From Monosiga brevicollis MX1 (Eukaryota), in the NCBI RefSeq assembly GCF_000002865.3, contig NW_001865085.1, positions 68,256 through 132,255 of the forward strand: 64,000 nucleotides of DNA, written 5' to 3'. This document shows, one piece after another, positions 1 to 35,454 of this stretch (within the stretch, counting starts at the first letter, position 1; each line of letters starts with the position of its first letter). The translations under genes and the position numbers were made by a program. The notes beneath the pieces are model-generated. The model saw nothing but the letters and a program-made list of their open reading frames with translations, was not told the DNA's origin and ran no database searches.

Positions 1-3000
1 GCGTCTCGTAATCAAGGCTTGCATTCACGCGCAGTCGACCCGTGGTGGCATCAATGGAAAAAGCTGTCAAGTTGTCGGGCAGCAAGCTGTATGACACGGT
101 GCCATTGGCGCCCGCGTCAGGATCAAACGCCACCAGCTGCTCGATGGTTTCTCCAATCGCCTCATTCTCGGGCACAGCCACGTCGTAGAAGGACGCTTCA
201 AAGCTAGGGATACGATCGTTTATATCCAAGACTTCGATCTGAATGGTTGAGGTGCTCGATAGAATCTTGCCATCAGTCGAGGGCACCGTGTTTTGGGCGG
301 TCACAACCAAGGTATGATTTGCTGTTGCCTCGCGATCTAGCCCTTGTGCCAGCAGCAGGCCTGTGCTTGCATTCAGGGCGAAGAGTTTGCTTGCGGGGCT
401 CGCCGTCAGGCTGAAGGTGGTCGCCTGGAATGCCGGAGAGACATCGGCGTCGGTGGCGACCACGTACCCAACGGGCTGCCAGTCAGTGCCCCCGCGCTCA
501 AGGATTTGCCACGCGTACTCTTGTTGAGTAAAGATGGGGCTTGCATCGTTCGCATCTTGGATCAGAATGGTCAGCATGACATCCACATAACTGGTGGATA
601 GGCTTAGCTCTGTGGCGCGCACGAGAAGTTGCACCACGTTGGGCCCAAGCTCAAAATCCAAAGCAGCGCGGATGAAAATGCGCCCACTCTCGGGATCAAT
701 CGCAAAGCGAGGGTCTGTGCTATTGCGGAGGCTAAAGCGTAGTGTGCCCGCTGGGCCGACGTCAGCGTCAATCACGGGCACGGTGGTGACCGTGTCATTG
801 ACGCTCAACGACTCCGAAACGTTGGCAGTGCTTGAAAACCCGGCAGCCAAGACCGGTGCATTATCGTTCACGTCCTTGACAAAAATTCGTACTTGCAGGG
901 CTGGCCCAAACAGCAAGGTTCCATTCTGTGCCCGCTCTGCCGCCACAATCCAGAGGCCGAGATATTGTCCGGCCTCTGCATCCAGGGGCGCCAGAAGGTC
1001 CAACGAGCCGGACGTTGCATTGAGAGTGATGTTCTCCGTGCCTGGGGTGGCCTGAAGAATGGCGTACACAATCTCGCCTTTGCCATCCGGGTCATAAGCT
1101 TGCACCTGGCTCAGGTGTACGGGTGCAAGATTCTCCGATACGTTGACTTGAATCACGCTGGGCGCAAAGTAGGGGCGAACATCATTCAGATCCTCAATCT
1201 CAATATGGACCATGAGGCGTGACTCGTGGAATGGCGTTGCATTGTCTCGCGCTATGATTTCCAAGGTATAGCTCGAGACGTTAAGGCGCTCAAAGTCCAG
1301 ATCATCACGGACAACTAGCGTCGCCGTCGTCGCGGAGAATGCAAAGTGCTGAGCCGCCACATCCATGCCCTCGATTGCATACGTGATGCGACCTGCAGCA
1401 CCCGCATCGGGATCCACTGCGGTAGCGTTGATCAGCACCTGCCCCACAGCAACGGATTCGTTCAAGCGCAGGCTGACTGAGCCAAGGCCCCCAGCCGGCG
1501 CGTCAAGAAAGTGCAAAAACCGAGGGGCATTGTCGTTGACATCCTGGACAGTGATGACGACGCTCGTGGTGGTGATGCGCGGGGGGCTGGCCCCGTCTTG
1601 CGCCAGTACGGAGACGGAATATTGCGCGACACGTTCACGATCCAGGCCCCTGGTCGGCCGGAGCACCCCAGTCTCGTCGATGACCCAGTCAACGACAGTG
1701 TCGGGCTGTATCTTGTAGCTCACCCGTCCGTGGGGGCCTGGGTCCGCATCGGTCGCGGCGACGGCCAAGGCAACCTGCGTCGGATCGGCGGCCTCGTTCA
1801 CCTGAAAGTCGTAAAGAGATTGCGCAAAGACGGGCGCGAAATCATTTCGGCACCACAAGTACGGGGTTGTGGCCTCGCCGACGAGGGCGGGGTTGAAGCC
1901 GTTGACAAAGTGCGTCAAATTGATGCCAGCCGCAGCATCACGGAGGGGTAGGTTGATAGGGTTGGGAAACATGAGGGGGGAAGAGCGCAAGCCCACCCGC
2001 GCGTGCGTTCGCACCCCGTTGTAAGCTGCATTGTAAGTCTGCAAGACGGAGACACCAAAGGTGGCACGGAAATCTGCTCTTAGGGCCACGCGAGCCACTG
2101 TGGTGTTGCTGGGTACGACAATAGGAAACACGCCGCCAAAGGGGTGCATCGTGGGGGTCAAGGCCTGATCACCAACTCGCGCAAGACCAGCTACATCGTT
2201 GTCATCATCCCCACCCATCGAGTTCACAACATATGCATTGCTCAGCGCATTGGTGAAGTTGGGCCACGAGGCAGAAAAGGCGAGGAAGAGATGGCGGTCC
2301 GCAAAGGGCTTGTCTCCTTCCAGCCGCACGGTGAGTTCGCAATCGTTATCCAGGTAGTGGGGCGCCTCCAGCTCCAGAGTTGAAAAGTAGACGGGTGGCT
2401 GCACAGCCAGGTCTCGGAGCGCGTTGAGGTCCGCGAGTGTGACGCGACCATCGCGGTCAACGTCCAGCTCTGGCTCGTAGACGCTTGCCAAGACAGCCGG
2501 CGACTCGGGCAGGCGAAAATTGTAACTGGCGTGCTCCAGGTATAGGGCCAGCAAGTCCACGTCTGCGTCACTTTTGCGACAGTCCCCGTTGACGTCCCCA
2601 CGCTCGCGCGCACCACCTGTGCAGTTGGTACATGGCAGCGTAGCATTTGCAGCACACACTGGCCGGCCCTGATCCATATCCGTGGCATTGGCCGAGGGCA
2701 CATCGGTTGTGGTCAAGCTGTCAGAGGTCACTGTGCCGGTACCGGTACGACGTCGGCGGGCGCCCGTCGTGTCCGAAACATCCGCAGTGAAAGCACCCGC
2801 CACGATGGTGCGCGGCGTTGGTGAGCCAAGAGGTGCACCTTCAGTTGAAGTCGCGCGCTGCACAGTGCCGCCAAAGGTTATGTCACGCGTGGACGTGGGA
2901 AAGACGGTGATTTCAGCCACGCGGAGCAACCCAGCGGCGGATGCGTCTACGTTCATAGGGTTGAGGACCTGGAGGTCAAGATCAAGGCGTCCGGTACTGG

Positions 3001-6000
3001 GCACTGCGATGGTTCCTTGGAAGCCAGGACCGATGGCGGTGCCAACGACCTGCATGCGCTGGCTGTTGTATGTCAAGGTTATTGTCAAGTTGCCCAAAGA
3101 TGCCCCACCAACGGCCACCCAAACAGGCACCACCTTGTTCTGTTGTTTGCGAAGGTTTTGGAGATAGTGTCCAGTCACGTCTCCAAGATCCACGTCGCCT
3201 TGTGCAGGCTGCAGATTGACACTTACGCGAAGGTCCCGTGACAAAGCCGCTGATGTCGGGCCGCCCGTGGGTACACCACGTGCTTGCAGCAGCACGGCAT
3301 TGGTGGGGTCCACATTGAACATTGGCGCACACGTGCCTGTACTGGAGTTGATGGCCAAGGCTGTGGGATTGGAGCTGAAGAATTCCAGCAGTCCAAGATA
3401 AGCGCCATCATTTGCGCGTGTCACGTCAACTAATTGCCACCCGTTGCCCAAGGTTACGTTGACGGATGCCAAGGCCGAAGAGCGCCCGCGCTGTCCAGCC
3501 ACGACGGCGCTACTGTCCCCAACCATAAAGGCGTCAATGCTAGTGAGTTGGGTTGAATCCTCACTCACTTCAAGCTGCGCGACATCGGCCGACTGCGACG
3601 TGGCCTCGGCAAAGGTGGCTGCAAAGCGCAAGCTGGAGGCAGCTCGGGGTGTGATGCGCCAGCGCTCGGTACCCAGCGGTTGCAACTCGACCGCCGTCGA
3701 AGCGTTGGTGCCGTTTGCAAAGGTAATGGAAAGATGCGTCTCTGGATTTCGCGTCACGTCAAGGAGCTGGCCATTGGACAACTTGAGCCAGATGCTGAGT
3801 TCGGCCTCGAGGTATCGGCCCAAAGGAGCCAGCCGTTGCAACACGCCCACCGGAAGGTTCGAGGACCCCGGGAAGGCCGGGTAAGGCCGAAGACGCACCT
3901 CCAGCGCGGTCGGAGTGACCACACTCAGCTGACTGGTGGCATTGCCAGCAAGATCCAAAAAGTCAACGCCAAGCGTAAAATTTCCTGCTGTTGCTTCCTG
4001 GATCACGTACAATTCAGCCTGTGCTTCCGTTTCGTTGAGACGCAGAGCCACACCCGAGGCAGGGTCGAGCGTGTACTGCGTCTGGCGATCCCAGGTCATT
4101 ATTTTTGCTGTTCCCGACGACGAATAATGGGCCCCCACCGAAACGGTAATGGATGTCGGCACCCCAGCACGGTTTGCAGCGGAATTGGGGTACGCCAGGG
4201 CAGCCCCAGAGAGATTCAGCACTGTTTCAAAAGGCTCCAAGTACACGTCCACGTCAGGGGCCGCCGTGAGTGAGATCTCACAGCGGGTTAGAGATGCGTT
4301 GACAAAGTTGCCGCTGCCCACGCTCCGGGGCAGGACCTTGGAGCCGTTGATCAGTTCAATGTAGTCGCGGCCCAGGTTGGCGTAGGCCAGGCCCGGGGCA
4401 TGCAGTGGCAAAATATCGGCGCTGCCATCAGCATAGACCAGCTCAGACTGTAAAAGGCCGGAACGATCGGCCAGGTCTTCCACGCGACGCTGGCGCAGGC
4501 TAGCCCGAACGGTCGTGGCCGTTGCTTCCACATCAAGGCCTGTGATCAGACGTGTCTTGAGAGCCACCGCCACAACCGGACCCTCACGCGTGACTTCCAA
4601 ACTGAGGCGACTGCCATGTACTGAGACATCGATCAAATGGCGTGCCAGCGTAGCCTTTTGCACAACCATGCGGCCATCAGGTTCCACCGCAAGGACTGAG
4701 GGTTGGCTCACGGTCAGGTGCGGTGCCACAAGATTTGTCACGTCCAGAAACACGGCCGACTCAGTGTTGCCACGATCAAAGCGGGCCACCGCCTCGAGCT
4801 GGCTGCTTTGATACAGCGTTTCATTGCAGCTGGGTGTCACCGTGCCCGCAACAGCCCGCAACTGGGTGCGAGAGGCACTGAGTTGCACCTGACTGGCTGC
4901 AAACACACTTACCGTGGCTGTGGATTGCACAGCTCCATAGATCACGAGAATGCTGGTGGCGGCACTGCCACCCACTTCCTGCCCGTCAAAATAGAGGGCA
5001 CTGCAGTTGGACGTCACCTGAATATAGTCAATGTCGCTGCTACAACTAGCTCCCACGGGCGCTCGAAGAGTTGTCAAGAGGCCAGATGAGCTGCGCAAGT
5101 GCAAGTTGAGTTCAACGCGTGGTGATGTGTTTGGTAGCAGAGTTTCGGTATTAGTGAGATCGTAGGTATCGGGCACGGCTGCCACAGCTATTGTGGCGTG
5201 CGCCTGCAGCCTGATCGCCGCTTGCGAGGCCTCAAAGTACGTATCAGTCACAAATCCCATGGGATCGGGCAGATCTTGTAGCAGCGCCTCATTGTCACTC
5301 ATGGTTCCAGAGCAGTTGAGACTGATGGTACTGCCCGCCAGTGCATCAAATTTGCCGGCCATGAGTTGTAAATCGGCAATTAGGAAGGGCGAGCCGGTGG
5401 GGGCCTCGTCGAAGAAGCCGTCAGTGTTAAGCGATGAGATGGCAAAGCCGTAGCCGTTATCGATGACGTTGGTGCTTGGCAAAATGTCTGCCGATGTCTC
5501 CGCAAAAACCAGAGGCCCGCTGGTCGGCAGGGCGCAAGACATGATCAGATTCTGCACATTGCGGTCTGTGGCCACGTACACCTGCACGCGCACCGTCTCG
5601 TCAGGACTGATGGCATGTGCAGGCAGCTGCACAAAGATACGATTGGTGGCAGCCGGAAGCGGGCGTGTGTGCAGCGTCACGTTGGTCACTTCTACAAGAG
5701 AACCAGACTCCGTCAGACCGCCGCGCACGGGAAGAGTCACGTCGGGCCCGCCTGCAGTCAGGCTGTCGAGCCAGGCGGAGGGTACCGTCGCAGCCATGAA
5801 ACACGAACCCGCGCTGCTGGTGGTTTGGCAGGCTACAAACAACGTTGAAGTTTGACCAGCAGCAGTCACCTCGAGCGAGACGTTGCGAGCGATGGCCACG
5901 TCGGAGTTCGTGTCCGTGCGAGTTACCTGGGCATGGACTCGGATCACCGGGCGCTCGGCCCAAATGTCGCTGTCCAACACCACAAAGCGCACGCCTGCCG

Positions 6001-9000
6001 ACCACAACGTCGTACTGACATTCTCAACACTGCTCGACGATGCTTCCAAAGTCAAAATTTCGCGCTCCTGAACGCCGCCATAGCTTGCATCGAGGGCGAC
6101 AGTCGTCGCGCGGTCCGATAGAGTCGAGGTGGAGAGCTGGCGCACAACGGCCGGGGGCGATCCGGGCGCCCATGTGGAGCCGTTGCGAAGTACCACACCA
6201 TCGACGCTTGCCAGGTGCGGCACGGGTGCAGCACCAGATACGACGGACAGGACGCGGCTCGCGGTGAGGTTTCCACCATCGCGCACAAGCACGCGAATTT
6301 GCGTCAACGGAAGGGGATTGCTCTGAATCTTGTCAACGATCAGCGCACCGCCCTTGGCATCAATGCGCAGCGGTGTGTCAAGCGCCCCCTCGAGGTCAAA
6401 AGTAAGCGCACTCTCGACCTCATCAGCATCGCTAGCCGTAATTTCTGCGACAACGGTGCCTACTGCATCAAACAAATCGAGCACCACGATTGAAGGGACC
6501 TGATCGAGCTGTGGGGCATTGTCGTTACGGTCCTGGACCAGGATGGTCAGGTTGAAAGGAAGTCCCGCTCGACCCCCACCGTCTCGACCGATCAGCATGA
6601 CCTCAAAGCGATGTGGATCAGTTTCATAGTCCAGGCCCTGGGTCACCACCACGCTGCCCGTGGCAGCATTGACCTCGATCGCAAGACCTGGCGGAGTCAC
6701 GCTTAGAAGTTCGTAAGCCACATCCCCTAGCTCGGCACTGTCTGCATCCGTGTAGTTGAGGAACCAAATCTCGCCGATTAGGGAAGACTCGACCACTTTC
6801 ACTTCGCCAACGTAGGTGTCTGCGCTTGGCACGTTGTCGTTAATGTCCAAGATTTCGAGTTCAAAGCTGGCGTTTGCTGTCGCCGCATTAAATGGCGGGA
6901 TTGTGTCAGTTGCCGTGACCGTGAGCTGCACGGACTTGTAGGCCTCGTAGTCAACAGCGGCCACAAGGTGTATCTCACCATCCAGGAGCACAAAACTATC
7001 GGCCAATGAGACAGGGCTAACGTGCAGCTCCAGGGACACGCGACCCCCAGCGGCGGGCGGATCAGCATCTGCAGCCTCCACTGTTGCAATCACGCCGCTA
7101 GAAATGTTCTCGGCCACTGTCGTCTGGTTCTGGTACGCACCAACTAGGCGCGGGGCTTCGTCGTTCACATTGGTCACGCGCACGGTCATGGATACAGGTC
7201 GAGTTTGCGGTGGTGTGCCCCGATCTGATAAGACAAGCTCGAGGTCATATTCTGTAATGTTTTCGTAGTCGAGTGCACCCGCAACGCGCAATTGTGTCCC
7301 GCTGACGACCTCAAAAGGCAAGGCCGAGTCAACAAGAGTAAAGAAATAGGCCGGCGCCCCGTTCACAGCCGGTGTGTCCCGGTCTGTGGCTGACAGAGCT
7401 AGGACCAGTGTGTCCAGGGCTGCATCTTCGGCTATTTGGGCCGTCTGGGGTGAGGATAGTTCTGGTGCGTTGTCATTGACATCGCGGACTTGCAAGACGA
7501 GTGGCTGCACCGTGCTTAGCGCTGGAAAACCGCTGTCCGTAACGCGTACTGTGAGGTTATGCCACGCTTCCACTTCAAAGTCCAGGACTTGGCGGGACAC
7601 TAGACGCATCTGCCAGTCATTTCCTGGAGCGGCTGGGGGCTCAAGATACGCGCTAAAATCGTTGACAGCAGCAGGACTTAGCAGCTCCACAGTCGGCTGA
7701 GCGAAAAAGTCTGGATCGCGCACAAGGACCGTGGTATTCAAGACTGAGTTCTCTCGAACTTCCAGCGTACTGTTGACTGGCAAGCCATCAAACTCAGGAG
7801 CCACGTCGTTCAAGTCGGTGACATTGACGATGATCGTTTGGATGTCATGGAGGCTGTCGTCGTGGGCATTGCTGATGCGCACAGTCAACTCACACGCGTG
7901 AGTGGTCTCAAAATCCAGGCTTGCAACACGGTGCACGCAAAAAGGCGAAAGGGTCAGGTTAAAGGCGTTTGCAGCTGCGCTGGGCAAGACCGAGGCGAGC
8001 GTGAAGATTAGCTCTGATGTAGGAGTGTCAGGATCTGTGACGTTAAAGCACGCAAGCTCTTGTGGCGCAGGCTGATTTTCGGGGACGACCACAGTCAGCG
8101 CGGACTGTGGTATGAGAATGGGAGGCTCGTCATCCACGTCTACGACGGTGACAAGCACCTCAACAAACGTGATGTGGTGACCGTCGCTGGCGCTAACGTT
8201 GAGACGCCATTCAGACTGTGCCTCGTAATCCAAGGCTCGGTCCACAGACAGAAGAAGCGAGGCTGTGAGCCCGGGCACAACCTCGCTGGAGAACGGCAGG
8301 CTGGCCTCGTCAATGAGAGTGAGAGTCAACGCCTCATTGGCAGCTCGATCCAGATCCGTCGCCCTAATCTCCAGGTCAGGTAAAGGGCCCACTTCGCCTT
8401 CGGCGATCACGACTGAGTATGAAGCAGCTGCAAAGCTGGGTGGGTTGTCATTAACGTCAGTGAGGCGCACCGAGATGCTGGCTTGTGTGGTGACTCCACC
8501 CGTGTCGCTGAGCAGAAGCAAGACATCGACACGGACGTCGTTGCTACTGGCGGTGATGATTGTTCGCTCGCGATCCAGGCGCCCATTGGCCACCAAAACC
8601 GCGACGCTAGCATTACTTTGTTCCAGACGGAACAAATTTGTGGGTGCATCAACACCTGCAAACGTAACGGAGGCGATGGCAACACTAACCACGCCAAAGG
8701 CGCCGGTGTCGGCATCAGACACAAGAACAGTTGCCAGACGCGTCCCAATCTCTACTTCTTCCAGCTCGTTTACAAGCTGTGTACTCGGTGATGCGACAGG
8801 CGCATGGTCGTTGACGGGTGTAACGTTTACAAAGTAGGAGAGGGGGGCACTGCGCATGGCGGTCTCATCCAGGACCACTACCACTAGCTCGCGAACGCCG
8901 AGCGTCGGTTCATCACGCTCAGCCACGAAGCGCAGCGTTGAGATGAACGCCGCAGCGTCGTCCAGTGTCCAGTTGCCGGTGACACGGAAGGTTATCACGA

Positions 9001-12000
9001 CGTTGTTGGTGCCGATCACGTCTACGGTGCGTGCGGCGGTGTTGCCGTCGGTGTTTGAGGCGACGACTCGGTCAGTGGTGGGATCTGCAGCCCCCATGAT
9101 GGTCACCTCAATGGCAGTTACGATGGAACTATCCTCATCCGTCACGACGATGTTTGCCTCCGACGCAAAGAGCCTCGCAGCGTAGGTATCCTCCGCCGTG
9201 GGAGCGGGGTCAGCTGCAGATAGTCCTTGGCTTGCATTTGTCACAAGTGCCGGTGCGTCGGGGACAATCGCAAAAGGCATCAAGACCGAAGCAGTATCCG
9301 TGCCTCCCTGGATGTCTGTGACCCGCAAGGTCAACACACGTGACGTGCCCGAGGGGTTGTCGGCGCGGTTGATGTACTGAATAGCTTGCAGGGCCGCTTC
9401 AAATTGTGCCAGGGTCGCAGGTCCCGTCAGATTGACCCGGTCACCATGCGTGGCCAGCAGGATGGGGTTCGTAGCAGCCAAGGGCAACGTGGTGAACTGC
9501 TCATACTGGGCCGTGTCGACAAAGGTAGTTGTCAGCTCCGCACCCGCCAACTCCGTGTCGTCCAGGTCCAGCAGCGATAAGCTACTCAGCACCGTGACGG
9601 CCGGGCCCTCCTCCGTGAATGTACCGGCAACCATCGCCACAATCTGGACGGGATTGTTGACGCCTTGAAATGTGATAAAAATCACGACTTGCGTTGAGGC
9701 ACCACCTTCGTCCGTGACGGTGAGGCGCAGCTTTTTCGAGGCTGCTGGCGGAACGGTGAAATTGGCATTGTAAGCCACGGCGCCCAACAAGGTTCTGTAA
9801 GTAGCTAACGACCCCAGTCCGTCCAGGAAGAGAGTCGTGCCATTGCTTTCCGACCGAAGAGTGATGCCAGATACTGCATCCACACCACCGTTCAAGCGCA
9901 CCGCCTCGTCCATAGCGGTATCCGGATTCAGCACATCTACCCTGAGCTGCGACAGGTGTGTGCTATCCACGTCGTGCAGCGATACATTGGCAGCCAGCAG
10001 TACGCCACCGCTCTGCTCTGTAAAGTTCAGATGCGTAGGGAGACTCCCCAGCACGGGCGGGTCGTTGACGCGAATCGTGTGGATCATCACTGAAACCGGC
10101 ATGCTGGCGCCCACCTGATTGTAGACTGTGAAAGCGCGACAAGAATGACATGCGTGCAGGAGCGCATGAGCGACAATCGCAGTCAGGTTTTACACAAGGT
10201 CACCGGCAAAGGCGTGACCATCACATGGGCACAGTGGCAACAAGAGCAACGGACGCAACCATCGCTTCAGAATTGGACAACAACAGAAGCTCATCTGACA
10301 CCCCTGCTTGTAAAACACGTACCGACAAGTGTCAGGTTGCGCTGGTTGTGCAACGGCTCTGTGGCATTGTTGATGTACGCGACGCTGGCCAGGATGTCGG
10401 CATACACAGCCAACGAAGCCGATCCACTAATATTCAAGCGGCCCGCGACTGGATTGTATGCACCTTCCAGGCCCGCGGGCAAGACAGCAGGCAGCCGGAG
10501 GCTCTCATCGCCAACGTTCGGCTCTCGGGCTGCGCTTAGCTGCACCGTGGCCCCTGCAATGCCAGCATTCAGTTGAAATGAGTTTGCTTACGCGCACGCC
10601 AAGAGGAAGGGGAACAACAAAAAACAAAAACAAATCAAAAACGAAAAGTGGTCGATCAACAAACGCCACACGACAAGCCTTACCTGTGGCATTGTAGGCC
10701 CTGTTCTCTGTCGACGAAAGAACAAGTCCTGCATCAAAAGGTAGCACGCCAGTCAAACTCCCCTCCAGAACGTCCACGGTCACGGCGCTAAGTGCAGCCT
10801 TTATTACTTGATCGTGCCGTGGCGCGATGAACAGCACCATCAAAGTCTCATTTGACCATTGCTCTCCATCAAACGCACGCCAGGCAATCGAGCGTGATAC
10901 GAGGCGAGGCTCATCAGTTGGATTGACGTAGGTCAGCTGAGACAGCACTGTGGCTGCCTCAACAAGGGAGAGGCCACGCGCATCGTTAATTGCTCTCAGA
11001 GAGAGATAGAGCTCCGTTGCCGTAGCCATGTACTGCACCCGAGCCTCGATCGCCGAGACAGCAGCAGGAGGCAACGTCAAGTTTTCACCCAAATCCAAGG
11101 CCAAGGAGTCCGCACTGGCCTCGGACAAGCGAAGAGTCACGTCAACTCGTGTCACCGTCTGAAAGGCTGCATCTGGATCCTGAAGGTGCACGTGGCTGAG
11201 AGTCAGAGGTGGCGATCCTTCTTCAAACGTATTGGAAGAGGTGTTGAGCACCACAACTGGAGGTCGATTGTTGGCATCAAGAACATGAATGATGATCTCT
11301 TGATCCGTCCAGTGGGGCCGTAGGCTGTCGTCCTGGGCACGCAGGCGAATAGAATATGCAGTCTGCACATCCACGTCGAGAACGTCGCTTGCCGTTAATA
11401 TGAGCTGATCCTCCATTACGTCAAAAAGACCAGCCTCGTCTTCCAATAAGTCAAACGTGACGGACTGCTGGCCGTCGGCGTCAGCGTCCTTTGCCCGCAG
11501 CGTGGCCACCACGGCACCTGCGTCGGCTGCCTCGCTCAGGTTGAACGATGCCATGTTGACGTCCCACACAGGGGCATTGTCATTGACGTCGGTGACGTGT
11601 AGAGTCAAATTAGAGACCGTTGCATGTACCCCATCGGATACCTCGAGGCCGCAAACGAAGACGCGCGCCCCAAGCTCATAGTCCAGTGCAGCAAAGGCTG
11701 AAATGTTGCCCGAAGCACTATCCAGAGCAAATGCCATGCTGGCGTTGCAGGCTTCGCCACCAACAAAGGCGAAGGTAAGGTCTGGTGAGTCGGGATCAAC
11801 GGCGGTGACGCGGCCCACCAGGCGCGGGCTTGACAGGTTTGCAGCACCCTCTGGTACGTACAAAGTGTTGGCAGACGTCCACACCGGAGCCTCATCGTTC
11901 ACGTCCAGCACCAAAACCTGAATGCTGTGGTTTGTCGTACGGGGTGGAGCACCCGCGTCGGTGGCCACAATGGTCAGATTGTAAGACGCCTGCGTTTCAA

Positions 12001-15000
12001 AGTCTAAGGCGCCTGCAGTGAGCAGATCGACTCCAGATGCATTGCTCGATGCTTGCACGCGGAAAGGCAGGTTGTCCGAGCCATTGATCGAGTAAGTCAG
12101 GGCGGCGTTCCGACCAGCATCTGCATCAGACACGAGTATCGATGAAATGAGCGAGCCTGCGGGCGCGTCTTCAGCCACCGTTACAGGTCGCGTGCTCTCA
12201 AAGACGGGGCTGTTGTCGTTGGCATCCAAGATATGCACCGTGACTGGCACGCGCGTGGTACTGTGCGAGTCTGTGACGAGTACGGTAAAGGACCACGATT
12301 TGTTCGTGCTCTCATAATCCAGACGCTCTTCAGCGACCGTGATGACTCCAGACGCGTTGATGGCAAACGGCACAGTCGGTGTAGAAAGTGCATAGCCGAG
12401 AGAATCCAGGCCATCAGGGTCGTTGGCGAGCACGCTGCCGAGGAGATGTCCCACCTCGGCTGTCTCAGAAACATTAAAGGTCAGCTCGACTGGGGCAATG
12501 GGAGATTCATCGGGCTCATTTCGGACGGTCAAAACATACACGGCCGGCGTGATCAAGCCGCCACCATCGATTGCGTTGACGCTCAAGCGATGCTCAACTG
12601 CTGATTCATAGTCCAGAGTGGTGATCAGTTGCAGCTGGCCTGTGGCAGACAGACGGAACCGCTTTAGCTCGACTGCAGGACCAAGCAGCTCAAAGCCGAC
12701 AGTGCCAAATGACCCACTATCAGCATCAGTGGCGAGTAGCTGCCCCAGTATGGTACCAGGCGACGTGAGCTCCGAAGCACTCGCGGCAAGCGCAGTGGTG
12801 TTCCACACGGGTGCGTTGTCGTTAACATCGGTGAGGCGGATGGTGGCGGTAGCGTTGACCACATGAACACCATCCGTTACCGCAAAGACGATGGACACCT
12901 GTTCGTAAGCCTCAAAGTCGAGGCCGTCACCCAGGTAGATCGTACCGTTGTCAGCATCCATGGAGACGAACGTGGCGGCTGCCACAGGACTCACAACCAA
13001 GATCGAAAATGCAAAATTCTCATCACCATCTGCATCGATCACCTGGACCCCGGCTAGCGAAGCCACGAGATGCTCGGCCACGGTCCAAGGGGGCGAGGTA
13101 ACTTGAGGCGGCTCATCATTGACATTGCGAATGACGATCAAAAGAGTTGCCCAGGCTGTGCCTAATATGGGTCGCTCTGTGTCGAAGGCACCGATAACCA
13201 GCGTCAGTTCTGGGGTCTGTTCGTAGTCAAACGTGCGTGGAAAGCTGACCAGCCCCGTGGCGCTAATGTTGACCAAGGAATGATCACCGGACAGCACGAC
13301 GAAAGAAGCGTGGCTATGGGCCGGGCTATCCAGGTCCATCACCACCAGCTGAACTGGCTGGGCCAGCGCATTCTCCGTGACAGTCAGGGTAATGTTATCG
13401 GTCCCCGCCACGAAAACCGGGGCATGATCATTCACATCACTTACGCGAACGGTCACCGGCAGACGCGCCGTACGTTGACCGCCATCAGATGCCAGGATAT
13501 GAAAGGAAAAGCTTGCTTGCTCGTGGTAGCGTACTTGCTGAACCAAAGTCAGCTCTCCGCTTGCGGCATCAAGAGAAAATGGCACGGTCGCATTCGGCGC
13601 CACTTCCATCGTGTAAGAGAGCTTGCCAAAAGCACCAGTGTCCTCATCACTGGCGCGCACTGTGGCCAAGCTGACCGGTGTAGCTTGGTCCTCCGACATG
13701 TTGAGGCTAAGATGACTGAGGGTGAAGATTGGTGCGTGTTCATTTACGTTTTCTACTTGGATTTGGAGGTGTAGGCTGTCAGTAAAGATACCATCATCAA
13801 CAGTCAAGTTGACCGCGTGCTCTGTTTTTGTTTCATAATCAAGCCTGCGCCCAGGCGCGAGCTCAATGCGCCGGCCGTTGAGGCGGAAGAGTCCGGGCGC
13901 ATCCTGGTCCAGCGTCAATGTGTAACCTAGATCATCTGGGTCGCTGACGTTGAACTCCACGATCGGTGATTGTGCTAGGAGCGTCTCGTTCATAGCAAGA
14001 ACAAGCAAGCCCGAGGGTGCCAAAATGACCGGGTTATCGTTGAGATTCTGAAGCGCCAGATCAATGGTAAGAAGAGCAACGCCTGCTGGCTCAAAATCGT
14101 CGCGGGCCGTGAATTGCAATTGAATGCGTTTGGTTGTCGTCATCTCAAAGTCCAAAGGGGCGAGAAGGACAATGGCCTGATCGACGAGAGCAAAGTTCGG
14201 CGCCCAGCCGGCTACCGTAAAAAAGTCGACCACGGTACCACCCAGACCCAGGTCTGCATCGGTCACTAGGTTGGACAAGTTGGCGATAACGGCGCCTGCA
14301 GTCAAATTTTCCAGAACCGCAATGACCCCGACATCTTGCCGCAGCGCTGGCACGGCATCATTTGCTGGCGCAATGGCGATCTTTGCCATTGCCGGTGTCC
14401 CGGCCAAATTGGCCGAATCGACAACCTGAACAGCAGCCATGCGCGTTTGAGGCTCGACGTGTATGCTCGGGTTGGTGTAGAACAGCAACGCCACCAATTC
14501 AGCGGCAGTGCTGTGGTTGATGGCGCCGCTTGTGCAAGTGAAGCGGGTGATCAGCGTCTGAGTGATCGGGTCGAAGGGCAAGATCTCGCGCGTCACGAAG
14601 CTCGGCTGATGCAGCATGTCAATTTCATCGCTGGCATCGGCGCCAGAGAGTGTGACCACAAAGCCCATCACCTCATCATTGTCCACGTCTTCCACGGTCA
14701 AGCTCAGGCCTAGCCCCGCGTACTCTAGATCACCATCTCCGCGCACCAGTGCAAGCGCGCCCGACTCGCATTCCGTGGTCATGCAAGAGGAGGGCACATT
14801 GAGATTGTGTCGAGAAACCAAGCGAAAATACTTTACGGCGGGCCGCTCGATTGGGTCGGAGGGACCCCAAGTCCCATCGGCCGTCACAGGCAGCGACTGG
14901 AAAAAGGTCAGTGGCCCGCCATCCCCCAAGTACACTTGTACGACATAGTCGTCGGCACTACGACGAGAGGTAAGTGTGCCACTCACCATCGCTGTAAAAA

Positions 15001-18000
15001 AGTACTCATAGCGCTGCTCAAGGGCCAACGTTAGAGAGTCGGCATTTGCAAGATACGCCCGCGCATCACCCTCAAGGTACGTCGTCTCACGGTTCAGACC
15101 GCCCGTCATCGGGTCTAAATCAACTGTGGCAGGATCATTGACGGCCTGTACGTTCAGCGACAGCTGCACGGCGTTACTGGCCGCGCCCTCTGCATCGTGA
15201 AGTCGGACCATGATTGTGCGCACGCCTGCCGTGGGTTCGTTCAAGATGTTTTGGTAGGTCGACGCAGCCAGTGCCGCTCGTAGGGCGTCGGCGGTCAGCG
15301 AAGCGTTACTTTCAAACATGCGCACCGTGTTGTTGGTTCCAACACCACTGGGGACCATGTTGAGGGCAGCATCAAAAACAAAACGTTCATCATCACCATC
15401 ACGCAGGCCACTCACGTGCACATGCACGTCGGTGAAGAGATCAGAATCAGGATCGGACACATCCAAGCCGTCTGGAAACAACGGCAACGCGGCGCCCTCC
15501 TCGAGAAAGTTGACAGTTTCGCTACCACTGGGCACAGCAATCACGGGCATGTTGTTGACGCCCAGGAAACGAATCTCAAGCGTGACCTCCATGCTCTGCG
15601 CCACACCATCCGATGCTGCAATCCGCAGCTGCGTGGAGACGGCAGGAGCAGCCGAAAAGTTGTTGCTGTACTCGATTGTCGCGAAGGCGGCCTTTAGTTG
15701 CGATGGTGAAGCCGGCCCTTGCAAAACAAGACCACCATCGGCGAGCGTATCAACCCGTACGCCGGGGGTTGCGTTGCGAACTACGAGTTGCTCGCCGAGT
15801 GCCGCAGGGGTCGGGTCAAAACGGACGGTCAGGTTGCTCAGCATGACGCTGTCGGCGTCGGTCAAGCGTAATTGGTGAACCAGTGCGGTCACAACACCGG
15901 GCAGTACGTCGACGCGCGCGTGTCCAATCAGGGGCAGCGTTCCCGATCCCTCCTGATAGCTGAGCGCAGCGACAGGGTACCCATCAAAGCTAACGACGGG
16001 CGGGTCATTAACAGGTACCACCGTCACGAAGGCACGGCTGGCTACCGAGCTGAGGTGTCCTTGTTGTACAACAAAGCGTACGGCACGCGTGACGTTGGGC
16101 AACGCGGGCTCAGGGACCGAAATCAAAAAAGCAACGGAGCGAAGGCAGGCCGTGTAGATGGCTGCGCTTGCTGCCCCGGAGAACAGCAAGTCTGTGCTGA
16201 CACTTGGGGCTACGGTGGGGCTGAGCCCACTGCAAGATGCGACATCGTACGCAAGTACATCTCCGGCAGCCGGGTTCTCAAGCGTGACCCGTGCCTGCAG
16301 AATTTGCACGGCTGTGTTAGAGTCCAGCAAGGTGACCCGACCCTGGTTTGGAGTTAAAAGGAGCGAGCCAGCAGCATCTCCCTCGATATATTCAACTGCA
16401 CGTTGGCGGCTGGCGGTAAGGTCAGCCTCGGAGGCAAAACCAGGTTGAGGTAAGGGTGTCAGCTGGATGATGGGCGCCCGATCAAGAACAAGCGCAGGAC
16501 GTAACACGCGCGTGCCCAGGTCAACCTGGCGATCATCGTCTTGCCAGGCTGTGAGGGTGAGCGCCAGGTCGGCAGGATTGGGCTCAACGTATGTCTGTGA
16601 CATTACCACCGATTGCAGCAAGGCCGTGTACTCGGCCAAGGAAGCGTGCCCCTCGATGTCTACAATTGCGCCGGAGGCTGAAAAGTTGAGCGTAAGGTTG
16701 GGAGGCAGTTGGGCCGGCACGTCGAGCTTTGGGCCACACTGGCTGGTACAAACAATGGTCCTCGAGGTTACGACAACGTCGACATAGCGCAGCAGAGCAG
16801 AAACACGGCCTGCGACCGTGCTGGACGGCGCAGCGGGGGACCCAAATCCACCCAATGTCAAACGCCCCATGCCTGAGAAGTCGGGCAGGCGCACAAGCCG
16901 GCCTACCTCGACTGCGGGCTGCGTTTGACCATTCAACACCTCGCGTTGCGTGATTTGAGTTGGTGCATACTCTGCCTCATTGATGAGAAGGGACGCCGAG
17001 CCGTCAGCATGAAGAGTCAGGGCAATGAAATCCCATCCATCGTCGACCAAGAGACTGGCGTCTGGGACAAAATGTACATCATATTGCAACCAGGCATCCG
17101 GCCGGCTGTCAAGAGATGGCACTTGGAACGTAACAATCACGAGGGCTGAGGTGGCCAAGTATATCTGAAGCTGAATGCGGCCATCGGCATCGCGTTGTGA
17201 CAAGAGCACGCCCGCACTCTCCGGAAGCAGGTCAGCCCAGAGAACAAGACTCAGAGCGGTGCTCGTGCCGGTCAGCGCCTCCAGAGCATTGGGTACGACA
17301 ACGAGATTGGAGGCATTGAATTCGACTGCAGCCGTCAGCAAGGACGTGCCGGCACGGGGGAGGCATTGATCGAAAAAGTCTACCAAGCCTGCGCTGGCAA
17401 CATCGGGTCCGGCGCTCGACTGAACTGTCTTACAAAGTTCGGCGGTGATGGGCGCGGCGTTCCACGCATCGTTGTCGCGCACTGGTAGCGTGAGGCGGAG
17501 AGCGCGCAGAGTACTTGGCAAGACGTCCAAGTCCGTGAGCGTGGAGTTGGCCAGTGGCCGGATCGCGCTGCCTTCTTCTGGCAGAGCGACAGTGCCAGTT
17601 GCAGGTGCAAGGGTCACATCCTCATCCGAGACGTCCAGCAGATTGACAGTCAGATTGTGCGTGACCCAGTTGGTTGGCGATCCCGTGTCACCAACGCGCA
17701 GCTGAATGAGGAGGGTGTCCCCAAGCGTTTCACGGTCAAGCGGTGCCGCGGCCTGGAGCGTTGCTGAGACCGCAGAGATGCGCGAGAACACAAAACCCAA
17801 AGGCGGCGCAATCACCAAAAACTGCATGTCTCCTTCAAAACTGTCCGCATCCGAGGCAGATACCGTGGCCACCAATCTCGGCACCAGAGAATTGTCCTCG
17901 GTGAGAGTGACATCATCTGGCGCCGAAATTACGGGTGGATTGTCATTGGCATCAAGCACCGTCAGTTCGAAGGAAACCGATGTGTTGCGGCCTCCGCCGT

Positions 18001-21000
18001 CGCGGACAAAAAGCTCGTAACGCTGGCGTTGACGATCAACGGTCTCGAAATCAAGAACCCGGCGAATAATCAACGCAGTGCCGTCGTCGTTCAGCGAAAG
18101 CGCCGGATCTGGGTTCGATGTGTGTAAAGCAAGCTCAAGTGCTCCAAAAATGCCGACATCCGCATCCGACGCAGTGACATTGGCGTAGATGGTCCCCACT
18201 GGCACCAGCTCTGACAGCTCGCGAGATGTGACCTCGTCCAGCACAGGAGAGTTATCGTTGAGATTCTCGACCCAGCAGGTGACGAGCACGCGCGTGCTTA
18301 CACGCACGGGGGATCCGAGGTCGTACGCCTCGACCCACACGGCTACTGCCGAGGTTAGCTCTGCATCCAAAGGGCGGCGCATGCGCACGAGACCGGTCAG
18401 AGCATCCACTTCGAAGGCGTCCAGGTCACCTGCAACAAGGCGAAAACGAACGACCGAGTTGTTGCCGGGGCCGTCGGAATCCCAGGCCACCAGCGTGACA
18501 CAAGCCAGAGGTGCACTGTTTTCTGGGACCGTGCATGATAGGTTTCCGTGTGTAAAGGCGGGCGGATTGTCGTTGACATCCGTGAGGGTGATGGTCAGGT
18601 TGGCACGAGAGGAAAGCGCAAGTGTGGGATCCACGGCGTCCCTGGCAACCACCTCTAAATGATAGACGTCGCGCACTTCACGGTCAAGCATGGCAAAGGT
18701 TACCACCTGGCCCGAGGGCAGCAGTGCAAAGTCATTTGCACCATCGCCTGTGAGTTCGAGCTGGATGTCGGCCAAGGCAGCTCCATCCACGTAGTCCGTG
18801 GCGGCAATGAGCAAATTGTCAAGAGGGGTTCCAGGAGCAACGTTTTCAGGGATTGCAGCCGCATATGCGGGCTGACTGAATGTCGGCGCTTCGGTGTTCA
18901 CATCGCGCACGACAAGGTAAACGGTTAGCGTCGCGTTTTGCGCTCCATCCGATGCAACGATGCCAAATGTGAGGACATTGCCTTCAATGCCGGCAGCACG
19001 GTCGTAAGTCAATTGGATGAGCGCACGGACGTGCCCTGACGCATCGACGCTAAAGAAGGCCGGCATGGAGGATGTATATCTGACGGGAAGGCCAGATATA
19101 TCGCCATCCACGGCCAGCACGGTTGCTAAGACACCCCCGGGGGCGGCACCCTCGTCCACGCTGATGGTAACGTTGGTGCCATTGAGAAAGCGCGGCGGTT
19201 CATCGTTGACGTCCGCTACGTTGACCACAAACTCAGCGCGAGCCTCGAGGAATGGGGTGCCTCCATCGCGAGCCACCACTTCCAAACGCCAGAGATTGGC
19301 TGATTCCGCATCTAGAGGCGCAACCAGGGACAGGGTGCCGTTGGCGCTGAGCGCAAAAGGCAGAGTCGAATCTGATTCCAGTGCCCACTCTGGACCCGAA
19401 AGCACGCTGAGATTGGCAAAGGTGACGAGCGCATTGGCGCCAATGTCTGCGTCGGTCGCAGAATACTGGTTGAGGATCACCGGGGGGGCGACCGATTCGA
19501 CAAGGCTGATGAAATTACGAGTGGCTACAAGCTGTGGAGCGTTATCGTTCGCGTCCAGCACGGTCAGATTTAGCTCCCGCGACCCGCGACGTCCGTTGGC
19601 ATATTCAACTTCAAGGCGGTATGCAAACTCGGCCGTGGTCTCTCGGTCCAGGGGCGCAACCACCATGAGCAAGTTGATGCCTTGGACCGATATCTTGGGT
19701 TGAACCAAATGACTGGGCCAGCTTGTCAGAGCCAGGTCAGGGTAGACGCGCACGAGGGCCACATCGCCGCGCAGGCGCAGCGAGCTGCCCGGGGAGGCGC
19801 CGACAACAAAGCGCTGGTTGGCGGGGTTGTCGTGCACAGGCCCGCGGAGTTGTAGGGCCGTGGCGATGGGCGTTTCGTCAATCCACAGGCTCAAGTCGGT
19901 CCCAGCAATGACCACGCGCAGGCGATGCCAGGTGCCATCTATCACGCTGGTGGCAACGGCGCGGTTTGTTTGGGCGTAGTCTCCGTTGGCGAGGCGGTAA
20001 ACATAGGAAAAGACAATGTTGTTGGTGGTGGCGCTGAGTGTATAGCTCACGCTGTCGATACTCGAGGTGAGTGAGTCGCGCGTCTTGCTGAGGATATAAC
20101 CCGAGGCATCGAGCCGGACCATAGCGACAATGGTAAGAACCCCACTGGCGCCGACCTGAGCCGCAACAGCTCGGTCGGTGGCCGCAACTGCGGAGTTGGA
20201 GGTACGCGTCAAGCCGCTAAATCGGGTAGTTGAGCGCCAGAACCCAAGGGTGAAGCTGTCATCGGCAGTTGTAGCGTCCACGGATACGCCGGCCACGCCC
20301 TCCTCTGGCAGTCGCAAGGCGCCGTCAAGAACGGAGACCTCGGCATTCGCCAAGCTCACAGGTGGCAGGGGTACAACGTCCCAGATGGGATCTTGGTCTA
20401 GAACCTCCTGACCGGAATTGGCTGGGGCGCGCGGAAGGCTGGTTGTACCGACAAAGCCCACGATGGTGGTGGTGAAAAGGTTTTCGCGTAGCATTAAATG
20501 CGTTGGGCTGGCCGTGACCAGAATGCACTCGTTGTCAGGACACGCGGTGCACAGGCCTGATGTGGCGTTGAAGGTGCGATGTGCGGGACAATGGCTCACG
20601 CAGACGTCGTCATTGCGAGCAAAGCGGCATGCGTCGCAGTCACTGCTTGACGAACCAGAGCAGGATTGCAGCGGGTCGCAGAGGGCATGGCAGGCGATGC
20701 AGCCTTGATCGTGCGCAGTCGAGAGATTGAAAAAGCCTGGGCGGCAAGTATCACAGGCCGCACCCAGGACGTTGTCCTTACAGAGACAACCTCCTTCATC
20801 TTGACCACAGAAAAAGGTATTGTTGTGTCGAGAGCCCGCCTCGTTGCATACGCAGGCCTGACAACCCTCGGGGTTGGCTGCTGACAAGTTAAAAAACCCT
20901 CGTGCGCAGACATCACAGGTGGAACCCTGTACGTGGGGTTTGCAAGAGCAGGCCCCGTCACCGTCCTGGCAAGTTGCGGTGGCACGGCCAGCCGCATTGC

Positions 21001-23204
21001 ATACGCAGGGGCGACAGGGATCGACCTCGGTGATGGATCGATTGCTGGGAAGGAAAAAGCCGTCAGCGCAGGCAGCACATTGGCGACCGGTTGTGTGGGC
21101 GGTGCAGTTGCACACACCACCATCCCCAACGGTCCAGCTGTCGGGGTGAGGATCATGTGCAGCGCTGTAAACGCAAGCATCCGCTTTGCCGTGACATGTG
21201 CAGGGCTGACAGGTAAAGGCTGCTGCCGGGCCCAAAGCCGGTCGGAAGGGTTTGGCGTTGTACAACGGCGCGCAAGCCTCGCACTGGGAGCCGATGGTGT
21301 TGCCACCACAGCTGCAGCTGAGGGTGCTGTTGTAGGGAGGGCTCGATCTGACCGGTTCAGGGCCGCACTCTAGTTCAAAGCCGTGACAAGCACAGCGAAT
21401 GCTCCCCGCGATAGTACCGATGGTGACGTAATGGCTTTGCGCTAGCTCGGGCACACCCAGGCCAACGAAGCTTAGGCGCAGCTGTGTTGCTGTGACGGCC
21501 GCTAGAGCAGCTGAGCTGGCCGTCACATTGGGAAAAGAAGTTTGAAAGGCGACGGTACCGGTGCTTACAGCGGCACCGTCAGCCGTTCGCGGGTAAGACT
21601 GGCATGGTGCAGTGCTGGCAAAGGCGCAATCAGCGCGGAGCACACCCAGCAGGGTCCAGGCCACCTCGGCTGGGTCGCTGGTCTGAGCGATTTCGAGACG
21701 AATTTCGTCAGGCAAGGCCGAGAGCACGTCTAGTTCGATTCGATCGAGGTAGTGAGGCCCACGAAGGTCGAGTGTGAGAGTTGCGTTTGAGCCCAAAGCC
21801 GACTGCCAGGCCGTCTGTTCATCGCCATCCAGCACAAAGCCTGGAGCGAAGGCAGCTCCTGTTTGTAAAACACGATCCTGCGTGTTGCGCGGCGCGGGCC
21901 GAGTGGGTATTTCAACACAGGTATTGGGAGTCGACAGCTCATCCAAGAGCACTGGGTGTGTTGGTGGACAGCGACAGGCGGGAGCGACGGCGGCCGGCAC
22001 AAAAGCAAAGTGCACGGGAAAATCTTCTGCCACGGCTAGCGCGTGTAGGACGTCAGATTGGGTGGCCATGCGTGATGCAAGTTGTGCTTGGTAAAAACGC
22101 CCGGTAAATGAAGCCACCGTGGCCGTGTCGCCACCCACCAACATCTGGTCAACCTGACAGCCAAAAGGACGGTCTGAACCACACTGGGAAGGATCGATGA
22201 AGGTTTGTGGGAAGCTGGCAGGGTCGTAGTACCAAGATGCCAGAACCCGACCCGCTGAGTCATATACGACGAGATCCCGACGGTAAAAGCTAATGGTCCA
22301 CTCGTAACGCGTGCCGGTTTCGAGGGGTGCACTCGAGAGGGATAGTTCCACTTGATGGGGTTGAAAGTAAGCATCGCGTTGCTGAACCAAAAGACGACCC
22401 GCCGAGGCGTTGAGGGCAACGGCACTGGAAATAGTGGAGCCCTGATTAATCAGAACGGCAAATAAATGCCTGATGGGGCGGAGTTTGATTTTTGGCCGCA
22501 GAGAGGCAAGGGTTGATGGGGGCACGGGTGGACAAGGCGGCGTAGACACGGGAGCGTGAGTGGTTTCAAGTTGCAACGTGCGGCGGGAAACGTCCAGCGG
22601 GGCAGGACGTACTGCACGTCGGGGGTGATCGTTTCAAGCTGAAATCCCAGGCGTAGGGCATAGCCATTGGCGCGGGTCAAATGGGGCTGCTGTGTAATGG
22701 GCACGGCCAGTGGGGGCGTGCTGGTGTTGAGTGGGACGCCGACGCTTTCCTGTGATCGCAAATGCGGATGAACGGGGGTGAACCCAGACGGAGATGGGTG
22801 GCGACCCAAACGCACGTGCACGTCAAAATGAGCGGAGTGTTTCGAAGCAACGCATAACTGCACAAGCACGGAAAGGCAAGGGCGCGCCGGTTGGAAGTGC
22901 ACAATTTAAACGCAAAGGGGGCGCGTACGTTGAAGCCAGGGCGAGCTGTGGTCAGAAGATTAATAAAGCTGGGAGCGGCACCCGAGTAGGTGCAGGGCTC
23001 GGCGCAGTTTACAGTGGTGAGGCAAGCTGGTTCTGGTGTCAAGGTATATCGACAATAGGCCTCATCCGCCGAGGTGCAGGTAGTCTCGCTGGAGGCCCGC
23101 ACATAGCTGGGTAGGGCGGCTGCTTGAGGCAGCTCGCTGAAACCCAGAGAAAGGATCAGAGCGGCGAGCAGCGGCGGCAGCCCTGGTAGTCGCCGCCGTG
23201 CCAT
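1..23204 (-). CDS. Giant lefftyrin-type cadherin (probably the M. brevicollis MBCDH21-type gene), 3'-truncated by the window edge; ~7,518 codons inside the window
   Basis: Predicted exons 23204-22929 (ATG, signal peptide MARRRLPGLPPLLAALILSLG), 22749-22613, 22469-10684, 10553-10323, 10125-<1; all introns GT..AG with consistent phases (0,2,1,1). No stop-terminated ORF in the track uses the last exon's frame, consistent with it staying open to base 1. Domains: LamG-like, laminin N-terminal, 4 laminin EGF, furin-like repeat (the LEF cassette of lefftyrins), about 30 cadherin repeats (xE/LDRE/DxNDNxP motifs), LamG, TMEM132-like block, cohesin-like, dockerin. The expected FN3-TM-PTP end lies outside the window and cannot be seen. 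Confidence 0.93.
2408..2599 (-). other. Dockerin (type I-like) domain inside the giant cadherin
   Basis: Hand translation gives two F-hand-like repeats, GDVNGDCRKSDADVDLLALYL and LDVDRDGRVTLADLNALRDL, matching the duplicated DxNxDGxVxxxDxxxL dockerin pattern. Confidence 0.85.
2790..3140 (-). other. Cohesin-like domain inside the giant cadherin
   Basis: KVVPVWVAVGGASLGNLTITLTYNSQRMQVVGTAIG...GRLDLDL...GLLRVAEITV...ITFGGTV resembles the cohesin strand pattern (VxVPV...lxYD..l.vv.v..G...G.l..l.F). Confidence 0.65.
4230..6110 (-). other. TMEM132-like ectodomain block (N-terminal domain, cohesin-like domain, Ig-like domains) inside the giant cadherin
   Basis: Colinear motifs DASYGG, VRFVVLDSDIWAERPVIRVHAQV, ACQTTSSAGSCFMAATVPSAWL, IFVQLPAHAISPDETVRVQVYV, TVSVFAASQVQLSASRTQLRAVAG..C..LYQSSQL, VALKTRLITGLDVE and SELVYADGSADILPL match recalled TMEM132 motifs in the same order. 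Confidence 0.75.
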
Positions 23205-23614
23205 GATAACGGCAACTCGAGGCCTGGCCTCGAAATGCCCGTGTTGTGTATCCGCGACTTGGCGCACACAATGGGTCAAAACAAAGGTCCTCGCGCCCGA
23301 GAGGGGCGAGATGGTCAAAACTACAAATCGACACCCCATACGGACAGGGGAGCGATGGAAAAATATAAGAAGAGAGGATCTAGCCCAGTGTGGGAAGAGC
23401 CAGACTGACGTCGTGTCTTTTTCTTCTTTTTTCGGGATGGCTTGATTGACGTGAAGCAGAGCGTGTGATGCCACGAAATTTGCATGCATGCAGGGTCAAA
23501 ACAATAACATCTCCAACTCCGAGGGGTCTTGTTCATTTTGTTCAAGAAAAGTCAGATAAGTTTCGATTACAGGGGTGTTTTAAGAAGAGCTGGGACGCTG
23601 CGTCTCTCGAGCTC

Positions 23615-23644
23615 TGTGTGTGTGTGTGTGTGTTTGTCTCTCTC

Positions 23645-23706
<62 letters not shown>

Positions 23707-23714
23707 GCTCGCTT

Positions 23715-23762
<48 letters not shown>

Positions 23763-23828
23763 ACAAAAACTCTACTCTTCTTGTTTATTTGCTCTCTCTC
23801 TCTCTGTCGATCCCTCTCTCTCTCTCTC
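23615..23828. repeat. (TG)n/(CT)n compound microsatellite between two divergent genes
   Basis: Directly visible dinucleotide runs. Confidence 0.97.
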
Positions 23829-24118
23829 CGGGGGGCTTTGGGGGCTAGAGGCTGTGCGTACGCGGGGGTGCCGAGGGCTTGTGTGGCGCTCGAGTCTTGA
23901 GCAGGGATGATGAGGATGAGGATGGGGATGGTAATGGGCTTTTGAAGGACGAGGCAACTGTTAGCCGTCGGTATTCTTGGCTTGCCATCGCGCCAGGTCC
24001 GTGCTTGTGGCAGACTCTTCTTGATCGGGCATTGTGACCCTGACTCTGCCAATGCTTTTTGGCTGGTGATGAGTGTGGCTTACATATGGTACGCCTGCAC
24101 AGCTGTACAAGTCCAAGC

Positions 24119-35049: not shown

Positions 35050-35300
35050 AAGGTTGTAGCCTAAAGAAGGAGTTTATATTGGGCTCATGTCGACCTAATC
35101 AAGTCATTTACACCATACGACGCACACAAAATTCATCCAACACCCCACCACCGCCGCCGGCACTTTTGCCCTGACTTGATCTCAATGTCCAACAACCTGC
35201 ACATAGCTGTTCCCTGTCAAACCTGGGGAGACACCCCCCACATGCCCTCCCCACAAGCGCATTCCTTTCAAGTTGTTCCGTCAGTAAGAAGAAGATCGAT

Positions 35301-35303
<3 letters not shown>

Positions 35304-35389
<86 letters not shown>
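35304..35389. repeat. (CA)n microsatellite
   Basis: Pure CA run just upstream of the ATG at 35455. Confidence 0.97.
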
Positions 35390-35391
<2 letters not shown>

Positions 35392-35454
35392 TTCAAATTT
35401 TTAATTTTTTACACAAGCAGGCATCATCATCATCATTGCCGTAGTAGTATCAAG

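Follow-up and report, generated by a model that had tools for sequence, protein, structure and literature searches.

In this study, we analyzed a 64,000-nucleotide stretch of Monosiga brevicollis MX1 DNA (contig NW_001865085.1, positions 68,256 to 132,255; hereafter "the window"), whose minus strand encodes, in two long frames (22633-10505 and 10189-2), a lefftyrin-like cadherin containing a cohesin-like domain, a basic RRRR motif and a dockerin in succession. We consider it fairly probable that a furin/kexin-type convertase cleaves this protein directly C-terminal to RRRR and that its 6,588-residue arm would then be held mainly by a Ca2+-dependent clasp between cohesin and dockerin. For the family as a whole, sequence comparison leads us to hold the convertase-cut clasp with more confidence than for the window's own protein. 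This cleave-and-clasp reading is that of the original prediction, which named three grounds for abandoning it: a basic site that is not conserved or not cleaved, an upstream segment that does not fold as a cohesin, and a dockerin that binds neither cohesin. As judged from sequences and models, none of these was found, which supports the reading at the family level.

The RRRR motif (positions 2747-2758) lies in frame, exactly where it had been placed, inside the single stop-free frame 10189-2, where 0.018 such motifs would be expected by chance. It is the sole run of at least three basic residues in both long frames, and two contigs from one other sample are identical to the window over the site (X3 over 2176-3074 and X5 over 1733-2969). 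The looser pattern R-x-[KR]-R occurs 3 times in the 7,503 amino acids of the inferred protein, about 1 being expected, so that the case rests on conservation and not on the motif itself. The other occurrences (model residues 1485 and 6006) were rejected as cut sites, as the first belongs to a cadherin repeat and the other to an Ig-like domain; the second is, in addition, not kept in the single homologue aligned.

To follow the site across relatives, we used 67 sequences from one search and 1 from another, locating the pairs by iterated profiles and leaving uncounted the fragments without either domain. This gave 76 cohesin-dockerin linkers from 60 proteins, the window's own included, after three modules without an anchor were dropped. 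The RxxR between cohesin and dockerin, whose conservation the original prediction proposed to check, is present in its strict form, R-x-[KR]-R, in 58/76 eukaryotic linkers, and a dibasic site is found in 71 of the 76. Stretches of equal length taken from other parts of these proteins would lead one to expect 0.43 and 5.3, respectively. Seen from the proteins as a whole, 80 of 99 strict sites fall in the linkers, which make up 3,744 of 124,475 residues (3%), and the enrichment of the convertase motif in linkers across the family exceeds 100-fold. Under a second definition covering 78 modules that are spread over a tree (median pair identity 31%), 60 had a strict site, 13 a dibasic site only and 5 none. 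The modules are kin, and the 58 strict linkers are therefore not 58 independent events; the linkers are otherwise unalignable. Beyond these sets, a scan of genome contigs and a search of two genomes returned matches to a Cys-rich tail only, a second Atlas search returned bacterial clusters only, and of three word-based protein searches two were without a match.

The original prediction had missed that the family usually carries two sites. At least two basic clusters occur in 59/77 modules, one right after the cohesin (site 1) and one right before a Cys motif (site 2), with a spacer of 6-56 residues and variable sequence between them that cutting at both would excise. The window's copy, which is among the more divergent ones, has kept the first site only; because the query itself lacks site 2, the enrichment of this second site does not come from search bias. 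Among individual carriers, the linker has two strict sites in Hartaetosiga gracilis, dibasic runs in Codosiga hollandica and one dibasic site in Diphylleia rotans. The last two carry the TMEM132-cohesin-dockerin module outside cadherins, in a 7tm_2 receptor (P0047) and in a polycystin-like REJ/GPS protein (P0070), respectively; in P0070 the module can thus occur beside a GAIN-type cut site. Seven proteins of about 5,800-6,250 amino acids (P0004-P0007, P0009, P0010 and P0016) have three cohesin-dockerin modules each, most of them with basic sites, and would yield four clasped pieces if cut. Two others (P0059 and P0069, 41% identical) have a shortened cohesin and a short linker without a basic site, together with a SEA-like GSIV/GSVI motif near the C-terminus, seen by eye and not called as SEA by Pfam.

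A control is provided by a first cohesin-type domain (cohesin 1) further upstream in the same proteins: none of 44 eukaryotic cohesin 1 segments has a strict site. A second comes from bacteria, where the same TMEM132-like cassette with a dockerin was found in 16/401 genomes from the phylum to which a Myxococcales record belongs. The bacterial cassette shares with the window's protein the domain order and the pairing of a linker Cys with a Cys of the dockerin loop. Unlike in the window's protein, its linkers are 11-17 residues long and mostly acidic, and 0/20 have a strict or dibasic site (two further matches lacked an anchor), so that no convertase cut would be predicted there. Because the bacterial linkers are short and without basic sites, the putative cleavable loop is a eukaryotic feature on a module otherwise shared with bacteria. 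The bacterial carriers (L009-L030) are huge open frames, of up to 14,117 amino acids, in which the TMEM132-like Ig/cohesin cassette is accompanied by the dockerin.

In the window's protein, the predicted socket of the clasp is the second cohesin-type domain (cohesin 2), which contains no cysteine. Its modeled fold is as originally predicted, and its limits are about 2768-3205, wider than the 3140-2790 first given. The structure model, built from a 49-sequence alignment (mean pLDDT 74; single-sequence folding reached a pLDDT of 31.8), has values mostly of 88-95 in this domain and predicts a nine-stranded jelly-roll. It matches the cohesin structure 2vo8 with a Z of 14.7 (rmsd 2.5 Å over 130 residues), and the top 29 rows of that comparison are all cohesins. 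A sequence-level Pfam check, suggested for both partners, gave a call for only one of them: the cohesin 2 segment of the window matched 0 Pfam families and no PDB sequence, while Pfam Cohesin is listed for 8/18 scanned homologues. The profile of the alignment reached PDB dockerins at E 2e-7 and cohesins at E 2e-4, and a language-model search led to cohesin-dockerin proteins at 0.93. The predicted plug is the dockerin, which stood up to the analysis at its proposed position (2599-2408; our limits 2402-2599): its translation has two F-hand Ca loops, the model gives it the corresponding helices, and it scores 26.4 bits with Pfam Dockerin_1 when excised alone (cut-off 22.9; 18.5 within the whole frame). 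It thus has the makings of a type I dockerin, with an unusual Lys at position 8 and Ser at position 9 of loop 1, and its best PDB sequence match is a Clostridium thermocellum dockerin (E 0.0039).

Between socket and plug runs a Thr/Ser/Gly-rich linker (2666-2761), predicted to be disordered (model residues 314-345 have a pLDDT <50), whereas the domains on either side are well folded in the model. The RRRR would hence be a conserved R-X-[KR]-R site in a loop predicted to be exposed, in a protein whose start, as judged by eye, resembles a signal peptide, as expected of a convertase substrate. In the gene model, the residue preceding such a cut would be number 6,588, in agreement with the distal arm of about 6,600 residues proposed earlier. 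Following the linker is the Cys motif (2621-2656), on the C-terminal side of the cut, whose last Cys co-occurs with a Cys in Ca loop 1 of the dockerin. By alignment column, 76 of 95 modules have both cysteines, 12 neither and 7 one only; as the two are kept or lost together in 88/95 modules, they likely form a disulfide, which would lie within the C-terminal fragment. In total, six cysteines lie between the Cys motif and the next cadherin repeat, all C-terminal to RRRR. Contrary to what had been stated, cadherin repeats do not resume straight after the dockerin; a beta domain of about 185 amino acids with two Cys (1850-2386), kept in eukaryotic homologues, intervenes.

Covariation offers a view of which cohesin the dockerin would bind. 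In type I complexes, according to PMC8063739, strands 8-3-6-5 form the binding face, positions 10 and 11 are the specificity residues, and helix 1 acts together with the end of helix 3. Across 95 modules, the strongest inter-domain covariation joined the centre of cohesin strand 6 with position 21 of dockerin repeat 2 and position 11 of repeat 1, and cohesin strand 8 with dockerin position 18. The set combining this front face with helix 1 had a top-5 mean Z of 4.89, a value reached by 0/3000 matched random sets (94 modules, the window's row being excluded), and gave p 0.0003 in the 76 eukaryotic modules only; the back face, and the helix-3 set of the opposite orientation, gave p 0.47-0.82. 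When the same comparison was confined to the 45 modules in which both cohesins are present, it was passed by cohesin 2 (0/3000) and not by cohesin 1 (p 0.64). These results point to pairing of the dockerin with the adjacent cohesin 2 and not with the upstream cohesin 1, and favor, over dual binding, one orientation in which positions 11 and 18 of helix 1 and position 21 of helix 3 would lie on the 8-3-6-5 face. The window's own pair, a non-Gly strand 6 centre with a small residue at dockerin position 11, is the co-varying state, seen in 30/52 non-Gly and 0/41 Gly modules. Docking predictions were of little help: the complex of cohesin 2 and dockerin scored 0.00 in a run where the alignment was unused and the partner fold uncertain, and counts neither way, and the model's pTM of 0.59 is ambiguous between rough bounds of 0.49-0.58 for undocked and 0.60-0.66 for docked domains.

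Based on these data, we propose the following sequence of events. Since the dockerin appears to pair with the adjacent cohesin 2, the clasp would form before the cut, closing during folding while the chain is still whole. A PCSK-type protease would then cut the linker loop in the late secretory pathway; choanoflagellates and sponges encode such proteases, with the shared consensus R-X-R/K-R, according to PMC2770060 and PMC6850559. In place of the covalent link, the cut would leave a load-bearing joint that is non-covalent and Ca-sensitive, from which, as a conjecture, force or calcium loss could free the distal arm.

Several observations weigh against the clasp in the window's protein. Cleavage itself, there as elsewhere in the family, is predicted from sequence. 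By the time the covariation sets were chosen, the top pairs were already known, and the face columns were taken from strand alternation and an assumed numbering. The null has the phylogeny of the data without modeling it, and a tree-aware test, with 1 usable pair on supported branches, had no power. Moreover, covariation is blind to whether a dockerin pairs within its own chain or with a neighbouring identical chain. The window's copy sits on a long branch (1.3 against a median of 0.48), being the 8th most divergent of 78 in an unrooted quick tree, and it has lost site 2. Its dockerin Ca loop 1 has Lys where 67/77 have Phe and Ser where 60/77 have Asp, and its cohesin lacks Gly-Gly and has Ala at a place where Asn is found in 70/77. 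Threonines flank the site, with a P1' Thr that occurs in 1/76 family sites, and O-glycans near a site can block convertases. Finally, an unpaired upstream Cys (frame residue 2287), which is lost in the one homologue checked, could make a disulfide across the cut.

Some of these points would fit a protein that is cut and then parts or exchanges its halves. The clasp would be weak in this divergent copy and the arm shed, or arms and stumps would re-pair between molecules or cells, the dockerin docking in trans. The changes at family-conserved cohesin and dockerin positions and the long branch agree with this, as does covariation that does not separate cis from trans, and the homologues with three modules per chain would provide several exchangeable pieces. 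Against it, the copy keeps the Ca-binding Asp/Asn at positions 1, 3, 5 and 12 of both loops and its four cysteines, and its key interface pair is altered in both partners, in the way in which the family co-varies. In addition, the spacing of 11-17 residues, with no site, between the bacterial domains fits an ancestral pairing within one chain. We regard release or swapping as unlikely.

The features of the linker bear on another possibility, that the site is shielded (for instance, by O-glycans on the flanking Thr) or rarely cut, and that the module acts as a Ca-dependent latch within the chain whose loop gives slack under force. The Thr/Ser-rich flanks, the Thr at P1' and the missing site 2 would suit such an uncut latch, and 5/78 modules as well as the bacterial copies do without a basic site. 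According to PMC3953070, cut and full-length Fat1 coexist on cells. The retention of RRRR in a linker that has otherwise diverged, as the only basic run of its kind in the two long frames, speaks for cutting, and so do the predicted exposure of the linker and the more than 100-fold enrichment across the family, which makes an uncut latch distinctly improbable in our view.

The divergence of the copy could also mean that the module is a degenerate relic that no longer binds or matters, in which the motif is left over from an ancestor. Its missing Pfam cohesin match, its long branch and the Lys at a hydrophobic position (position 8) of Ca loop 1 are what a relic might show. However, both the cohesin and the dockerin folds are predicted confidently, the frame is open, the Ca ligands, cysteines and RRRR are intact, and cutting without a clasp would lose 88% of the visible chain; a relic is thus, to us, very improbable. 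The convertase-cut clasp is the reading that we retain for the window's protein.

The joint belongs to a gene for which we inferred 5 exons from sequence, with GT-AG introns of 179, 188, 130 and 197 nt; the other-sample contigs over the gene look like DNA and have no splice joints. The resulting model is stop-free over at least 7,503 amino acids and continues past the window edge. Exon 1 (22929-23204, minus strand, as for all features of this gene) begins with an ATG and a hydrophobic, signal-peptide-like start, and is followed by exon 2 (22613-22749). Exon 3 (10684-22424) encodes an F5/8-like domain, four laminin EGF domains, a furin-like Cys-rich repeat, LamG and cadherin repeats; exon 4 (10323-10553) is short, and exon 5 (2-10125), which runs off the window, encodes cadherin repeats, a TMEM132 cassette, the cohesin-RRRR-dockerin joint and more cadherin repeats. 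Pfam recognizes cadherin repeats, four laminin EGF, LamG, TMEM132 Ig domains and the dockerin. The TMEM132-type cassette (approximately 3215-6022) comprises a conserved region, cohesin 1 (about 5662-5195) and bacterial-Ig-like domains. In it, Ig_TMEM132_4th scores 28.3 bits (cut-off 27) and Ig_TMEM132_5th stays below its cut-off; cohesin 1 is alignable across 46 modules and had no match in a PDB sequence search. As a correction to the original prediction, the joint lies at the end of a TMEM132 cassette that has a cohesin-type domain of its own. After the joint, Pfam cadherin repeats (2-1813) run off the window, and the membrane anchor lies beyond it.

In its layout the protein agrees with the lefftyrins, which are cadherins of choanoflagellates and sponges: it has the four laminin EGF domains near the N-terminus, the cadherin repeats and the TMEM132 cassette. 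In the N-terminal cassette (20531-21847), the four EGF_laminin domains are accompanied by weak matches, F5/8-type at E 0.02 and a GF_recep_IV-like repeat at E 0.0034, both below the Pfam cut-off. Lefftyrins, as defined by Nichols in 2012, reportedly have a laminin N-terminal domain and a furin-like repeat flanking the EGFs, together with FN3 domains, a transmembrane helix and a cytoplasmic tyrosine phosphatase.

Upstream of the start codon of this gene lies a GA/CT microsatellite (23600-23830). Elsewhere in the window, a single 2,198-aa frame (43133-49729, minus strand) combines FERM, six PDZ and tyrosine phosphatase domains, a layout that we take to be PTPN13-like, and a 1,655-aa frame (28086-33053, plus strand) has many EGF repeats of the teneurin/tenascin type. 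A match to the Menorin family (35065-35910, plus strand; E 1.2e-9) has a methyltransferase (33676-35049) and an ABC transporter fragment (38102-39136) nearby.

The reading proposed here assigns to the cohesins and dockerins of cadherins that predate animals a concrete function that can be tested. For the bacterial cohesin-dockerin pair, PMC6030884 cites a rupture force of over 120 pN, among the highest known. With the module present in cadherins, a 7TM receptor, a REJ/GPS protein and, lacking the cut site, in bacteria, our observations bear on the pre-animal origin of mechanosensitive or sheddable receptors. We can go further, tentatively and with more doubt than conviction, and suggest that surface proteins of early holozoans and other amorpheans may use the bacteria-shared cohesin-dockerin pair as a general, convertase-armed joint beside SEA and GAIN. 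Giant cadherins, adhesion-GPCR-like and polycystin-like receptors could then release their arms, exchange them or dock them anew between molecules and cells under the control of calcium and force, and modular adhesion of this kind would be older than animals.

Much of the architecture has been described before. The TMEM132 cassette is present in lefftyrins, coherins and hedglings (PMC6030884), and these cadherins share with the window's protein the cadherin repeats and, in the same order, the conserved region, cohesin and bacterial-Ig domains, as well as the N-terminal EGF/LamG cassette. That study describes one cohesin before the Ig domains, reports that dockerins are not detectable in vertebrates and calls the function of the modules unclear. 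Its main text and supplement legends mention no second cohesin-dockerin pair with a convertase site, such as the window's protein has. Our literature search, whose scope left aside Nichols 2012, Peer 2009 and the supplement figures of PMC6030884, gave no account of cleavage between cohesin and dockerin. The domains of such cadherins were thus known already; the literature searched has no mention of a conserved convertase site between them, which is apparently new.

The window's joint resembles the cellulosomal type I complexes (PDB 1ohz, 2vn5 and 6kgc; PMC8063739) in its folds, F-hand Ca loops, 8-3-6-5 face and specificity positions 10/11. It differs in that the partners stand in one chain, parted by a predicted cut, with no scaffoldin or enzymes, in having a Cys motif and a loop Cys, as would suit secretion from a eukaryotic cell, and in the single orientation favored. 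A cellulosomal identity was rejected, as both modules lie in one cadherin chain and the visible 7,503 amino acids have no enzyme domain. The 'classical processing' of Fat1 (PMC3953070) and the S1 cleavage of Notch (PMC2770060) are alike in that a giant adhesion or receptor precursor is cut by a convertase (here predicted) and its halves stay associated non-covalently. There, the cut lies within or between native eukaryotic domains, whereas the window's joint would employ two domains known from bacteria that form a dedicated receptor-ligand pair, in a family that often has a spacer between two sites.

If the reading is true, this joint, a bacterial latch, would form a new class of cleave-and-stay-associated joint beside Notch S1, Fat, SEA and GAIN. 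Receptor phosphatases and LRP1 are further furin-processed non-covalent heterodimers. SEA and GAIN/GPS domains are cleaved, stay associated and have been proposed to release under force; they cut themselves inside one fold. An autoproteolytic joint of this type was considered and rejected for the window's protein, where, at E values of up to 1, Pfam lists neither SEA nor GPS and the predicted fold is that of a cohesin. Unlike SEA and GAIN, the window's joint would need an outside protease and calcium.

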